A DNA stretch of 16,881 nt from a virus: the IMG/VR virus record IMGVR_UViG_3300005529_000001, positions 1-16,881 of that record, one strand, 5' to 3'. This document shows positions 4,197 to 10,073 of this stretch, piece by piece. A program made the translations under genes and the position numbers. Each line of letters starts with the position of its first letter. The stretch's first letter is position 1. Below the pieces are notes generated by a model. The model saw nothing but the letters and a program-made list of their open reading frames with translations. It was not told the DNA's origin and did no database searches.

Positions 4197-4586
4197 TCAG
4201 AGCAGCGGTAAGTGTCCGGTGATCTTGTCGAGCTCTTCGACCTTGCACGGGCCGAAAGCAGCGCAGGTCAGGGTGGGGACACCATGGAACTCTGTCTTAC
4301 CGGCATCGATGATCGGGTGGACTTCGATGTCAGCTAGCTCTGCTCTGAAGATGAGGTCACGCAGTTCCTCTTCGCTGCCACAGCGGACGACAGCCTTGGT
4401 GAACGACCCGGACAGGAGCCACTGAGCCTCTTCAAGCGAGAGCTTGACAACGATCTCATCGCCACGCTCGCTTTCGTTGTTGTCAACGAGGAACTTCATT
4501 GCGGCGTGAGCACCTTGGGCGATCATCTTGCCCTTACGCATGTTCAGATCGGTGCGTACAACGATGACTTGCTTCACGTCGCTCAT
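4197..4586 (-). CDS. pth2: peptidyl-tRNA hydrolase, PTH2 family
   Basis: MSDVKQVIVVRTDLNMRKGKMIAQGAHAA... and C-terminal ...IIDAGKTEFHGVPTLTCAAFGP...ITGHLPLL match the PTH2 fold signature. ATG at 4584-4586 is preceded by GGAGGT with 5-nt spacing. The N-terminal extension in the ORF track reads through tRNA-Val(GAC). Confidence 0.85.
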   Translation of the reverse strand: MSDVKQVIVVRTDLNMRKGKMIAQGAHAAMKFLVDNNESERGDEIVVKLSLEEAQWLLSGSFTKAVVRCGSEEELRDLIFRAELADIEVHPIIDAGKTEFHGVPTLTCAAFGPCKVEELDKITGHLPLL

Positions 4587-4630
4587 AGCTACCTCCAGGT
4601 TTTCAAAGAACGCCACGTCCGAAGACGTGG

Positions 4631-4702
4631 TGACCCGTGTTGGATTCGAACCAACGACCACCTGCTTGTCGAGCAGGTGCGCTACCGCTGCGCCAACGGG
4701 CC
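4631..4702 (-). tRNA. tRNA-Val(GAC)
   Basis: T-arm 4639-4655. Acceptor 4632-4638 vs 4696-4702 with one G-U. Anticodon loop TCGACAA. CCA at 4628-4630. Confidence 0.8.
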
Positions 4703-4751
4703 TTGAAGAAGGTGTGTCCAGGTTCATGGTACACCTTCAAGTAAGTATCGA

Positions 4752-5147
4752 TCAGGTCTGGCGACTGTCTGCACCCGGGCGTTTCGAGCGTTCCTCTGCC
4801 CGACGGTCCTTGGCCTTCAGGCGCCCACCTGTCACCGTTTCGGGCGCTTCCGTGACCTGAACCGGGGTTGCATCCTTCGAAGCTTCCCTGGCTTTTCTGG
4901 TGGGCTTGGAGGGGTTGTCGATCAGGTCCTGGAGCCGAGCGCGTTGGGCCTTAGCCCCGACGCCCTTGCCCAGCCGCGAATCGAGCGCAGCAAGCTGAGC
5001 CTTCGGGCTCAGGGCTGACCACACCCCCTGTCGCTCCTTGGCTTCCTTGCGCCGGAGCTCGATGTTGGCCGGGTTGTGGCGTCGCCCGCCGACGCCCGGG
5101 TAACGTCGCTTCGAGTTGTCCTTCTTGCCTGACTTCGTGCTTTCCAT
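4752..5147 (-). CDS. hypothetical highly basic protein
   Basis: 131-aa K/R-rich ORF. ATG at 5145-5147 is preceded by GGAAGG 7 nt upstream. Sits in a GC-rich region where other frames are also open. Confidence 0.45.
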   Translation of the reverse strand: MESTKSGKKDNSKRRYPGVGGRRHNPANIELRRKEAKERQGVWSALSPKAQLAALDSRLGKGVGAKAQRARLQDLIDNPSKPTRKAREASKDATPVQVTEAPETVTGGRLKAKDRRAEERSKRPGADSRQT

Positions 5148-5150
5148 GTG

Positions 5151-5375
5151 TTACCTTCCGTATGTTGGGTCCTGGTGATCGAGATCGCGAGGGTTTCTTG
5201 CGGGAGGGCTTGGGCACACAGGGGCGACGTAGACGTACTTGTCTTCGACCTCGTGCGTGCATGGGTCACGTCGAGGCGTCTTGGGGATGTCCCACTCGCC
5301 AACGCAACCCACCAACGACGCCAACAACACGGCCCAAACGAGCGTCCGCATGGTGGAATCGTACCACTGCAACAT
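5151..5375 (-). CDS. small secreted or lipoprotein-like protein
   Basis: Start ATG at 5373-5375 (or 5349-5351). The N-terminus has a hydrophobic signal-like segment (VWAVLLASLVGC). The upstream ORF extension overlaps tRNA-Arg(UCU). Confidence 0.35.
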   Translation of the reverse strand: MLQWYDSTMRTLVWAVLLASLVGCVGEWDIPKTPRRDPCTHEVEDKYVYVAPVCPSPPARNPRDLDHQDPTYGR

Positions 5376-5389
5376 CACGCTTTCACTTG

Positions 5390-7982: not shown

Positions 7983-7999
7983 TGACTCAATCTACTAAG

Positions 8000-8572
8000 T
8001 CAGTCCCGCGTTGTTTCGTCACTTTCACCTGTACATTGTCCTGCAAGCGGGCACGCCGGTAGTTCACAGGTTCCCGTGTTTGGAGAATTGATGTCATCAG
8101 ATGAGGTACACAGCTTCCAAGGCAGCCCAGCCTTGACAACGCGTTTGAGCATGTCAGCAGTCCCACGTGATTCAGCGATGTTGTTGTGAAACGCTAGGAC
8201 CAGATCAATGGGCTCTTCAGGCTTGTTTTCTTCATCAAGCATCTGTTGGTTCCTGATCGGACCCGCTGCACGCTTGTGTTTGGTCCAGTCAGCTGGGTAT
8301 GGCCTGACTTCAAACATGAGTGCTTCAGCAACAGCGGCACAGATGATGTCAGCGCCGACACATGCACCGTGCACGAGGATGGTTCCAGGCCTGAAGCCTT
8401 TCAGCTCTTCAACGACACGGGTGATGTCATTCCAGTTCCTGTCACCAGTGACCAAGATCTTACGAACCTGTTTCTCTGACGGCAGCTTGCGACGTTCTTC
8501 GTCATCACGACGGTCATGGTAACGTCTGTCAGGCTTGTTACGCCTGATCTCGCCAGTCCTTTGCCGAGCCAT
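8000..8572 (-). CDS. DUF2493/SLOG-family nucleotide-binding protein with basic N-terminal extension
   Basis: ILVTGDRNW...ILVHGACVGADIICAAVAEAL...RPYPADWTKHKRAAGPIRNQQML matches the DUF2493 GxGAD...W..G..AGpiRN pattern. Its ATG overlaps the stop of the upstream gene (ATGA at 8570-8573). Confidence 0.6.
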   Translation of the reverse strand: MARQRTGEIRRNKPDRRYHDRRDDEERRKLPSEKQVRKILVTGDRNWNDITRVVEELKGFRPGTILVHGACVGADIICAAVAEALMFEVRPYPADWTKHKRAAGPIRNQQMLDEENKPEEPIDLVLAFHNNIAESRGTADMLKRVVKAGLPWKLCTSSDDINSPNTGTCELPACPLAGQCTGESDETTRD

Positions 8573-8925
8573 CAGTGGGTTGTCACTGCGTAATGTTCGT
8601 CATGCTGACTGACGTTTTGGACGAGAAGCGTTAGCGTCTCGTTAACCTGAGGCGTGTAAGTCAAGTCACAACCGTCTTTGTTTGACGTGTCACGTTTGAT
8701 GAACTTACCGATCGCCATCCCCTCTTCCTTGCCGTGATAGAGGTAACAGTCCAAGTCACCCCCGTTACCCACGACACGGATGCTTGTCTGGATGTGCGCC
8801 GTGGCTGGGACCTCAACACGGGACAACAGTCCGGGCTTGAGGGTGCCCTCGTAAAAACCGTCTCCCGCAAGTGAAGTCGTGGCTGCCAAAAGAATCGCAG
8901 CCACGACACCTACTACGTGCTTCAT
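8572..8925 (-). CDS. hypothetical secreted protein
   Basis: 117-aa ORF with a signal peptide (MKHVVGVVAAILLAATTSLAG). GGGAG SD 7 nt upstream of ATG 8923-8925. Confidence 0.5.
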   Translation of the reverse strand: MKHVVGVVAAILLAATTSLAGDGFYEGTLKPGLLSRVEVPATAHIQTSIRVVGNGGDLDCYLYHGKEEGMAIGKFIKRDTSNKDGCDLTYTPQVNETLTLLVQNVSQHDEHYAVTTH

Positions 8926-8928
8926 CGA

Positions 8929-9519
8929 TCACTCCCAGTCACCATTGTACCACCTAGACAGCCTGCTTTTCACGCCCGTTCGGTGATCAGTGACCTGGTC
9001 ATCTTGGGTGCGATACGTGCGAACCTTGTCGCCACGTTGGCCCGTGCCAACTTGCTGTTTACGATCAGTTTCTTTGGCGGTTCGTAATCGCTCTCTGTCA
9101 GCTTCATAGAGTCGAGCTGCAAGGACTTTCATCGCCATCGCTTTGTTTTGGCTTTGGCTTCGTTCATTGTCGATACGAACTTGTAACCCAGTCAACTTGT
9201 GAGTGACAACAACGCAGCTCTCGGTCTTGTTACGTTTCTGGCCACCCGGACCAGATCCGCGGACAGTCTCGATGAGAACGTCCTGGTACGTCAGGGGTTG
9301 GCCACTGACAAAATCAGGATCAAAGACAGCAACGGTTACCGTTGACGTCTGGACCCGACCACGTTTTTCAGTGGGTGGGATCCGTTGCCACCGGTGACCG
9401 CCGCTCTCGTTACAGAACGTCTGTTTGGCTCCTGCACCAGTGAAAGCGGCGATGACCAAACCTGGACGTTCGTCGATTAGTTCGATTTCAAAGACACCTC
9501 CGTGCTGCCACATTGGCAT
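8929..9519 (-). CDS. class-I peptide chain release factor homolog lacking domain 1 (PrfH-like, RF1-type PxT motif)
   Basis: GGHRWQRIPPTEKRGRVQTSTVTVAV aligns with the RF1 codon-recognition domain including PxT. VRGSGPGGQKRNKTESCVVVTHKLTGLQV...ERSQSQNKAMAMKVLAARLYE carries the GGQ peptidyl-tRNA hydrolysis domain. C-terminal RTYRTQDDQVTDHRTGVK is also RF-like. At 196 aa the N-terminal domain is absent. Confidence 0.85.
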   Translation of the reverse strand: MPMWQHGGVFEIELIDERPGLVIAAFTGAGAKQTFCNESGGHRWQRIPPTEKRGRVQTSTVTVAVFDPDFVSGQPLTYQDVLIETVRGSGPGGQKRNKTESCVVVTHKLTGLQVRIDNERSQSQNKAMAMKVLAARLYEADRERLRTAKETDRKQQVGTGQRGDKVRTYRTQDDQVTDHRTGVKSRLSRWYNGDWE

Positions 9520-9566
9520 ACACAGAGAGTTGCTCTTTCACGAGCAGCTTTGCGTCATCGCCGCCC

Positions 9567-10073
9567 TCAGCGGCTCTGATCTCGAGGATGACCGTCTCCA
9601 TTGTCTGTCTCCCCAGCGACCGCTCCGAAGTGCTCGTCCAGGATCATCCTGTAGACACGCCGGTTGAGACCGCTGTGTTGTTTGAAAAACTCGTTATCGT
9701 CTCCCGCGAAGATCTTGAGCAATGCGCTCGCGACGCCGGGAGACCTGCTCAGGCCTGCATCACAGTGAATGATGATCCGGCTTGCGATGGGGTGAGCCGC
9801 AACAAAAGCGAGGATCGCTTTCGCGTGGTGCGGCTGGAACATCAATCGCTCGACGTCTTCTCTGACAACACGTTCAGGTTGTGTTCCACCAACCCGAGTG
9901 TCCCAGACACGATCGATGTCGTAGAACTGGAGCTGCAAGACGCCCAAGGTGTTGCTGTTGGTCGGGAGCCTAGCGGGTCCGTCTTCTTTGGGGGTGCTGA
10001 TTGAGATGAAAACGTGCGGAACCTTGTGTTCCACGGTCTCTGCAAGCTGTCTGTTATAAACGATGACGTCCAT
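9567..10073 (-). CDS. CX5R dual-specificity phosphatase-like protein
   Basis: IIIHCDAGLSRSPGV P-loop (HCxxGxxRS). 168 aa. ATG at 10071-10073. Confidence 0.7.
   Translation of the reverse strand: MDVIVYNRQLAETVEHKVPHVFISISTPKEDGPARLPTNSNTLGVLQLQFYDIDRVWDTRVGGTQPERVVREDVERLMFQPHHAKAILAFVAAHPIASRIIIHCDAGLSRSPGVASALLKIFAGDDNEFFKQHSGLNRRVYRMILDEHFGAVAGETDNGDGHPRDQSR

Follow-up and report, generated by a model that had tools for sequence, protein, structure and literature searches.

A two-frame, RF1-type release factor gene with a prfB-like frameshift cassette in the tRNA island of a probable jumbo phage

What does a short release factor (RF) gene do in an array of viral tRNA genes? The question is raised by a stretch of 16,881 nucleotides (nt), positions 1 to 16,881 of IMG/VR virus record IMGVR_UViG_3300005529_000001 (hereafter, the window), in which small co-directional protein genes are interspersed among minus-strand tRNA genes and an RNase P RNA gene. 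The original prediction, made from the letters alone, singled out a PTH2 hydrolase, an RF-like factor, a Cys-X5-Arg phosphatase, a NADAR protein and a minimal nucleotidyltransferase, and viewed them as a self-contained kit rescuing stalled or damaged translation components. All these genes lie on the minus strand, at the coordinates first given. The explanation favoured here, with a probability of about 0.6, is that they are cargo genes of a tRNA island, one of which encodes, in two reading frames, a frameshift-gated, RF1-derived factor devoid of domain 1.

The RF-like open reading frame (ORF) at 8929-9519 encodes 196 aa. It matches PF00472 (E 3.1e-28) and the C-terminal end of PCRF (PF03462), and carries the PPT tripeptide and the GGQ motif (GPGGQ). 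Taken alone it aligns to the RF1 model only from position 157, and lacks domain 1 and, in domain 2, both the first strand and helix alpha5. Helix alpha5 carries the GG tip, by which base 1 of the stop codon is contacted. Precisely the missing segment, first strand plus helix alpha5, is encoded by ORF1 (9488..9601, minus strand; translation METVILEIRAAEGGDDAKLLVKEQLSVYANVAARRCL), made of 37 codons and an in-frame TGA. The remainder of domain 2 with PPT, domain 3 with GGQ, and domain 4 are encoded in the +1 frame by a second part of 186 codons plus stop (8929..9489, minus strand; PF00472, PF03462). As judged from the sequence, 9519 is a wrong boundary, and the RF gene begins at 9601 and extends across two reading frames. 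The absence of domain 1 and the presence of the two motifs had been correctly predicted; the start had been misplaced, and ORF1 and the frameshift overlooked.

The two parts meet in a putative +1 programmed-frameshift cassette (9488..9501, minus strand). A Shine-Dalgarno (SD)-like GGAGG (9501-9497) is separated by the 3-nt spacer TGT from the slippery CTT (9493-9491), and CUU-U is found directly at the in-frame stop TGA (9490-9488). The base that follows is A (9487), unlike the C of the weak termination context. This 14-nt pattern has one match in the window, against 0.01 expected by chance. When T9490 is omitted, reading goes on as EIELIDERPG... to the stop at 8929, and the conceptual product measures 223 aa. 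Adding ORF1 lifts the score on the RF1 model from 179.6 to 208.5 bits, and moves the start of the match from position 157 to position 105. No SD precedes the ATG at 9519. Gene callers place ORF1 across the phosphatase/RF junction, and ORF1 was called in L008, L009, L010 and L172 (labels of this kind, as L001-L003, L007-L011, L014 and L016, denote related sequences compared with the window). AlphaFold modelling of the 196-aa ORF by itself, which in hindsight lacks helix alpha5, gave a mediocre structure (pLDDT 71, pTM 0.46) that was set aside. The window also encodes tRNA-Leu(GAG) (11878..11962, minus strand), the isoacceptor reading the slippery CUU; a role at the shift site may be imagined for it, and its presence is perhaps a coincidence.

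Conservation was analyzed in 82 loci, namely the window, L010 and the best 80 of 316 IMG/VR matches. In 77 of them an ORF1 of 33-42 codons, marked by the motif EIRAAEGG, ends with CTT plus a stop, and is followed by a +1 frame of 182-193 codons. Cassette details were fully checked in 71 loci. The slippery codon is CTT in all of them. The stop at the shift site is TGA in 57 loci, TAG in 11, TAA in 3, and the SD-like element, mostly CGGAGG, is located 3 nt upstream in 64. The base after the stop is C in 47 loci, G in 17, A in 6, and T in one only. The type of stop does not correlate with the RF tripeptide, and follows a weak trend with GC content. The shift recurs at the same codon in independent assemblies, down to ~45% protein identity, and ORF1 is conserved as protein. 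A start codon proper to the downstream frame is lacking in 15 of the 80 viral loci.

Two loci, L079 (5902-6580) and L090 (5896-6559), feature one unshifted ORF, of 226 and 221 aa respectively, and no CTT-stop cassette. Both align to the conceptual fusion without gaps at the junction. They are natural controls for the fused product, the frameshift being either lost or primitively absent. L086, L089 and L091 (about 5890-6600) are aberrant, as CTT-stop is replaced by TAT-TAG or CTA-TGA, or the RF frame is interrupted by in-frame stops; they may belong to stop-codon-recoded genomes or be decaying copies.

The cassette is also found, unannotated, in a published huge-phage genome of 485 kb (LR745208.1; L177, 2992-3750), where it reads GCGGAGG GGT CTT TGA C. 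The L177 factor has no PxT loop (GGHRVQRTSNGRIHSS), and decoding elements are therefore not uniform in the wider family. Frameshifted short genes of RF1 type have been identified also in genomes and metagenome-assembled genomes of Myxococcota (L093, L095, L099, L101, L102, L115, L117), where they reside outside tRNA arrays. L093 is the complete chromosome of Archangium gephyra SDU49, and the element lies at ~3.54 Mb. Its neighbours are a GT4 glycosyltransferase (GT4-conflict match), a weak TIR-like match and DUF1569, with no clear prophage genes.

With the RF1 model, the fused 223-aa protein obtains 208.5 bits over positions 105-325 of 347; with the PrfH model (TIGR03072, positions 2-198 of 200) it obtains 99.4 bits, against a cut-off of 166.65. 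It falls below the RF1 equivalog cut-offs as well (208.5 vs 400 for NF001859; 200.3 vs 423 for TIGR00019), and is thus an RF1-derived paralogue, not an orthologue. In a profile search of the PDB, RF1 scored 193 bits, RF2 120, and PrfH chains 82 and 70. Overall, family profile scores rank RF1 (193-208 bits) above RF2 (120-126), PrfH (70-99) and ArfB (~25). The factor had been predicted to be of PrfH type. The architecture of PrfH is indeed obtained after the shift; the scores assign the protein elsewhere, and by hidden Markov model comparison it is classified as an RF1-type paralogue lacking domain 1.

All 82 fused products, which measure 216-232 aa, contain GGQ. The tripeptide is mostly PPT, and PPN in about one fifth of the products; PAT, PET, PST, SPT, SPL, PPS and PPG are rare. 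The Gln and Thr reading base 3 are kept, as the window segment WQRIPPTEKRGRVQTS aligns to VQRVPVTESGGRIHTS of T. maritima RF1. The conserved RF1 His (RIHTS) is Gln in the window (RVQTS), as often in the family. Helix alpha5 with its GG tip is encoded in ORF1 alone (EIRAAEGGDDAKLLV), so that the element recognizing base 1 would be gained only by proteins made after the +1 shift. Domain 1 is missing throughout, the open frame upstream being short in all 80 loci. According to the account of Mora 2003 given in PMC1586002, RF1 deprived of domain 1 retains codon-specific release and loses recycling by RF3. Domain 1 being dispensable for codon-specific release, the phage factor is expected to act as an RF3-independent UAA/UAG terminator.

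The elements of the cassette are those of prfB: a purine-rich SD-like element, a 3-nt spacer, CUU and an in-frame stop, usually UGA and usually followed by C, all set in a class-I RF gene. The prfB frameshift is a textbook case of translational autoregulation, in which the in-frame UGA is read by RF2 itself. The parts of the prfB cassette have been set out by Prince et al. 2025 (PMC12421855); in that survey of 12,753 genomes no programmed frameshift was found in prfA, and TAG was found in 0 of 8,164 prfB cassettes. By contrast, the phage-family gene is of RF1, not RF2, type, and TAG occupies the shift site in 11 of 71 loci. The site itself is different, as it corresponds to codon 38, at the end of helix alpha5 in domain 2 (about position 140 of the RF1 model), whereas the shift in prfB occurs at codon 26, in domain 1. 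ORF1 matches the prfB model from position 117 onward. Since the two shift positions fall in different domains, they are not homologous. Unlike RF2, a phage factor gated by UGA should be unable to close the loop itself.

Other known systems share some of these features. The class-I RF of Mimivirus and Megavirus (R726/mg280) requires a +1 frameshift at CUU-UAG-C or CUU-UAA-C, which has been interpreted as autoregulation and compensation for falling host RF (PMC3521657). As the phage gene, this is a virus-encoded RF gene in which a +1 shift is needed at CUU-stop. It differs in that the factor is of eRF1 (eukaryotic/archaeal) type, additional readthrough is required, the virus is amoebal, and there is no SD, while the phage product belongs with bacterial RF1, minus domain 1. 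PrfH (RFH) also lacks domain 1, retains domains 2-4 and GGQ, measures ~200-230 aa, and resides in mobile or conflict-related DNA; it is not frameshifted, and the phage factor is under the PrfH cut-off and has decoding motifs of RF1 type. The N-truncated RF1 engineered by Mora 2003, as described in PMC1586002, keeps the same RF1 parts, and on that description predicts codon-specific, RF3-independent release. The phage proteins form, in contrast, a natural and diverged family with conserved changes of its own (GGHRWQR, PPT/PPN, Q/H before TS).

Huge phages are known to carry RF1 and RF2 (PMC7162821), and in recoded phages phage-encoded RF1/RF2 have been associated with code switching (bioRxiv 10.1101/2021.08.26.457843). 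These too are class-I factors borne by very large genomes. Neither paper mentions a frameshift or the loss of domain 1, and the present family has no accompanying suppressor tRNAs. A literature search of partial coverage returned no account of a frameshifted phage or RF1-type release factor; a prior description is possible. An RF1-type factor with a prfB-like cassette is apparently undescribed, whereas the gene set itself is ordinary. It is an evenly balanced proposition that a large RF1-derived family, found in huge phages and some Myxococcota, gained a prfB-type cassette independently at a non-homologous site. After those in prfB and in the mimivirus eRF1 homologue, this would be the third invention of stop-gated control of a class-I RF, and the first for the RF1 type; the UGA gate would either tie the phage factor to the RF2 capacity of the host, or denote a specificity broadened to UGA.

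How the locus may work can be outlined. Ribosomes would initiate at 9601, read 37 codons and reach GGAGG-TGT-CTT-TGA. At the UGA, either translation would terminate, or the P-site tRNA-Leu would slip from CUU to UUU, and reading would continue in the +1 frame to yield the 223-aa factor; that the shift takes place in vivo is suggested by analogy with the prfB signal. The slower the shift-site stop is read, the more factor would be made, and the gene may in this way sense termination capacity. The gate would be host RF2, at UGA, in most members; about one fifth have UAG or UAA, which could be read by RF1 or by the factor itself. The product would release peptides at UAA and UAG without RF3, supplementing host RF1 as the tRNA set supplements host tRNAs. 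The genes of the block and PTH2 would each be separate cargo, serving peptidyl-tRNA recycling, NAD/ADP-ribose processing (possibly the reversal of nucleic-acid ADP-ribosylation) and termination.

These genes are of kinds known from jumbo phages, and make no single dedicated module. In the relevant passages of Iyer et al. 2021 (PMC7824862), tRNA arrays, PTH2, NADAR, YAcAr-SLOG and DUF4326 are recurrent jumbo-phage genes, viewed as counters to translation attack and to NAD/ADP-ribose-based defence. The translation-support and counter-defence cargo of the original prediction agrees with those passages, which mention no phage RF, RF frameshift, DSP-fold phosphatase in this context, or RNase P RNA. 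Phage NADARs neutralise DarTG1 (PMC11825919; PMC11543638).

The gene preceding the RF gene encodes a Cys phosphatase of DSP (DUSP-type) fold (9567..10073, minus strand). The predicted CX5R motif is present as an HCX5R(S/T) P-loop (HCDAGLSRSPG; H103, C104, D, A, G, L, S, R110, S111), and C, G, L, S, R, S, P and G of the loop are invariant in 11 homologues. D52 and D54, also invariant, are candidate general acids. The protein scores 18.4 bits on DSPc, against a cut-off of 33.5; sequence searches of the PDB gave marginal matches only, and fold searches group it with DUSPs, a grouping in which protein and RNA phosphatases are not separated. As predicted, the gene stands directly upstream of the RF gene. 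In the window the two genes share 35 nt, at the 3' end of the phosphatase and the start of the RF, and wherever both genes occur the distance from the phosphatase stop to the ORF1 ATG varies from -35 to +11 nt.

The phosphatase had been supposed to stand where an RtcB ligase is expected, and a true pairing would keep it as a neighbour of the RF in related elements. Neither assumption is supported over the loci compared. The two genes adjoin in the window, L010, L172 and 5 of the 80 IMG/VR loci, all members of one syntenic lineage, in which the RFs are at least 64% identical; in the same lineage, L014 and L016 carry an HNH gene in place of the phosphatase, which suggests endonuclease-driven turnover of cargo in the island. 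The phosphatase family (324 members) is found also without any RF. Homologues have been identified in L007 (a viral contig of 183 kb), at two genes' distance from an RNA ligase (L011), in a chromosomal context of myxobacterial appearance (L173/L174), beside YpsA and Fic genes (L175), and overlapping a HAD_SAK_2 phosphatase (L176). With adjacency limited to one lineage and contexts so heterogeneous, a functional pairing is unsupported beyond shared ancestry, and the two cases of RNA-repair-type neighbours are anecdotal hints. In L172 (3199-4004), the relative with 64% identity, genes for an HD_4 (RelA/SpoT-type HD) hydrolase and a Peptidase_S24-like protein precede the phosphatase-RF pair.

Neighbours of the RF gene were clustered as proteins over the 80 viral loci. 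No constant partner emerged among them, upstream neighbours being mostly singletons. The most frequent are NADAR (9 loci), an RNA-ligase-like protein (8 loci; weak Pfam support, 3e-4) and HNH genes. The strongest association is with tRNA arrays, as at least 3 tRNAs are found within ~12 kb of the RF in 43 of the 80 loci. Neither the window nor these loci yielded a suppressor tRNA. No recurrent ORF of RtcB size lies upstream of the RF in the 80 loci; this is a statement about ORF size, as RtcB itself was not searched for directly, and only the three large upstream genes were scanned with Pfam, resulting in a Ro60/TROVE gene, an RNA ligase (PF09414) and a LAGLIDADG gene. Genes of the first two kinds beside the RF are Ro60/TROVE in L029 (4133-5647) and a clear PF09414 ligase in L052 (4776-5810); short RNA-ligase-like genes reside in L027 (6588-7199) and in L041 and L045 (5091-5708).

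Several points weigh against the explanation of the locus as tRNA-island cargo with a frameshift-gated RF1-type terminator. What is observed is how the gene is built, how far it is conserved and to which family it belongs; the frameshifting, the 223-aa product and its activity are deduced. Twelve of the 17 window genes end in TGA, so that extra UAA/UAG capacity meets no obvious need. A factor of RF1 type should not read UGA, which would leave 80% of the members without prfB-like self-regulation, and the logic of an RF1-type factor gated by RF2 is unexplained; the UGA gate could be a dosage limiter exploiting the leakiest stop, a form of cross-talk between RF pools, or a sign of broadened specificity. 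The change of His to Gln and the varied tripeptide (T, N, S, G or L in last position) may denote a specificity different from that of RF1. On the prfB motif, M. smegmatis shifts at only ~6% (PMC12421855). An RNA ligase (PF09414, clear in L052 and weak in a cluster of 8 loci) or Ro60/TROVE is found next to or near the RF in ~10% of the loci, and such neighbours would fit a rescue or repair role too; this is a minority reading, and the factor would still be no PrfH. Finally, that the window is from a phage is probable from its relatives and the ~370-kb size of the contig.

The repair role deserves to be weighed in full, as it is the substance of the original prediction. A PrfH-like factor would rescue ribosomes stalled by nucleases, and the Cys phosphatase would heal RNA ends in place of RtcB, the two acting as a joint rescue-and-repair module. 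The fused architecture equal to that of PrfH, the abutting or overlapping phosphatase and RF genes, the vicinity of phosphatase homologues to an RNA ligase (L011) and to a HAD_SAK_2 phosphatase (L176), and the RNA-ligase or Ro60 genes that flank the RF in some other phages all speak for it. An MNT-like gene is found nearby, and a Pol-beta nucleotidyltransferase is sometimes recruited by PrfH-RtcB systems (PMC6514570). Still, the PrfH score is far under both its cut-off and the RF1 score, and the decoding elements are of RF1 type, while PrfH has conserved changes of its own (PMC1586002). RtcB was not seen in the 80 loci, in which no search was aimed at it, and the phosphatase adjoins the RF in a single lineage, where HNH may take its place. 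The window was found to contain neither RNA ligase nor kinase nor RtcB; with ligase and kinase missing, it is no self-contained repair kit, and the gene set is the usual one of a jumbo phage. A frameshift gated by a stop codon, moreover, points to the sensing of termination, away from that of RNA damage. Altogether a joint module of this sort appears unlikely.

Slightly less probable still is that the factor serves the genetic code, as a weapon or a safeguard. Boosted termination at UAG and UAA would beat suppressor tRNAs, and either block recoded co-infecting phages or fix how the phage's own stops are read, the frameshift holding the factor at a low, non-toxic dose. Unchecked RF expression is toxic (PMC12421855), huge phages carry RFs and phage RFs have been linked to code switching in recoded phages, as said above, and the in-frame stops inside the RF frame of L086 and L089 may indicate recoded genomes. 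This is opposed by the lack of suppressor tRNAs in the window and the 80 loci and by window ORFs that read normally under the standard code; nor is there any link of these phages to recoded competitors. The least probable is the view that the split is no programmed frameshift; the gene would then be a pseudogene in decay, or a product of faulty assembly, or else a source of separate 37-aa and 196-aa pieces that assemble in trans. Gene callers do annotate the two pieces apart, and the downstream frame in the window has the ATG at 9519. That ATG, however, has no SD, a start codon is missing from the downstream frame in 15 viral loci, and the unshifted homologues are colinear with the fusion across the junction. 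The shift recurs at one codon, always CTT, with an SD-like element at fixed spacing, in independent and much diverged assemblies in which ORF1 is conserved as protein, and this makes an artefact or a pseudogene very unlikely.

If the gene is a frameshift-gated RF1-type factor carried as island cargo, the family matters in several ways. A cassette that uses TGA, TAG or TAA in an RF1-type family is a natural experiment on what such a cassette senses, and on whether the stop must match the factor; it bears also on how readily this control evolves. Hundreds of public phage RF genes are mis-annotated as fragments of ~195 aa. Giant phages appear to tune termination besides tRNA supply. A compact, probably RF3-independent factor with built-in dosage control may suit cell-free or recoded-genome work. 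As for the genes first predicted, they are typical cargo, and a phosphatase/RF module is unsupported.

The window probably derives from the tRNA island of a jumbo phage not yet cultivated, borne on a contig of ~370 kb. It contains 35 tRNA genes, all on the minus strand. The exact phosphatase protein of the window is present, with identical gene order, on the 369,506-bp ENA contig ERZ27279688 k141_1055159, and likewise on a 247-kb Logan contig. The window is syntenic with IMG/VR viral contigs 23-340 kb in length, and PHROG matches and HNH genes are found in the window. A megablast of positions 4000-12000 against GenBank phages and PLSDB plasmids gave no match. The RF gene belongs to a block of six co-directional genes (10073-6884), which overlap or are at most 17 nt apart, in the order phosphatase, RF, small secreted protein, YAcAr-SLOG, secreted protein, NADAR. 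The block is bordered upstream by tRNA-Met(CAT) (10114..10190, minus strand), downstream by tRNA-Leu(CAG) (6785..6868, minus strand); the PTH2 gene is located further down. Promoter and terminator scans of 4000-12000 gave results at chance level only, and are thus uninformative on transcription units.

Within the block, the RF gene is followed by a gene for a 117-aa protein with a signal-like N-terminus (8572..8925, minus strand), which has no family match and is missing at this position in L001 and L002. Next comes a YAcAr (YspA/cpYpsA-related) SLOG protein (8000..8572, minus strand; PF10686, E 5.9e-12, 45.7 bits vs 28.2; phrog_289, 6.8e-25), which had escaped the original prediction; it lies between RF and NADAR, and has the same order relative to both in L001-L003 and L010. 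The combination of SLOG with NADAR, linked to NAD/ADP-ribose, is known from jumbo phages. The 225-aa protein encoded at 7305..7982 (minus strand) has an N-terminal signal-like hydrophobic segment, a homologue of 60% identity in the corresponding place of L002, and no match in Pfam, NCBIfam or PHROG.

The NADAR gene (6884..7438, minus strand), correctly predicted, matches PF08719 (E 3.4e-26, 92.9 bits vs 35.1), phrog_1017 (2.6e-43) and TIGR02464 (84.1 bits vs 73.7), and falls outside the DS32 anti-phage NADAR equivalog (69.9 vs 240). Its start is uncertain, being either the GTG at 7438 or position 7312, where an automatic gene caller sets it. The former is plausible, since L001-L003 conserve the N-terminal 42 residues. 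PTH2 (4197..4586, minus strand), a peptidyl-tRNA hydrolase as predicted, matches the whole of PF01981 (positions 1-115 of 115; E 8.8e-28, 97.3 bits vs 23), and TIGR00283 above cut-off (84.8 bits vs 82). It corresponds to phrog_1866, and is conserved in L002 and L003. A longer ORF, up to 4727, would enter tRNA-Val (4628-4702), and the start at 4586 is therefore correct.

The small MNT/Pol-beta-like nucleotidyltransferase (11523..11876, minus strand) shows the expected GS...DxD signature (GS...DIDV), and has a 76% identical homologue in L002. The assignment is weak, since scores are below the Pfam cut-offs (Polbeta 22.2 bits vs 26.9, 1.6e-4; NTP_transf_2 20.5 vs 21, 6.3e-4); the MntA model gives 1.6e-4. 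The RNase P RNA (11028..11385, minus strand; RF00010, 267 bits) is bacterial class A and full length. It is found, beside tRNA-Leu(CAG), also in L001 (5687-6044) and L002 (6142-6496), with scores of 261-277 bits. A literature search found no paper on phage-encoded RNase P RNA.

HNH homing-endonuclease genes (56-646 and 3587-4066, minus strand) are dispersed in the tRNA array. A DUF6915 gene (16332-16682, minus strand; 4.3e-45) lies at the window edge. Just past the opposite end of the island, the source contig continues with a gene for DUF4326 (L008, 20306-20507), a domain tied in the jumbo-phage literature to Macro/SLOG/NADAR fusions. The sole clearly conserved plus-strand gene of the region (10476-10985) is found between tRNA-Arg and the RNase P RNA; it encodes 169 aa, has no family match, and is 74% identical in L001.

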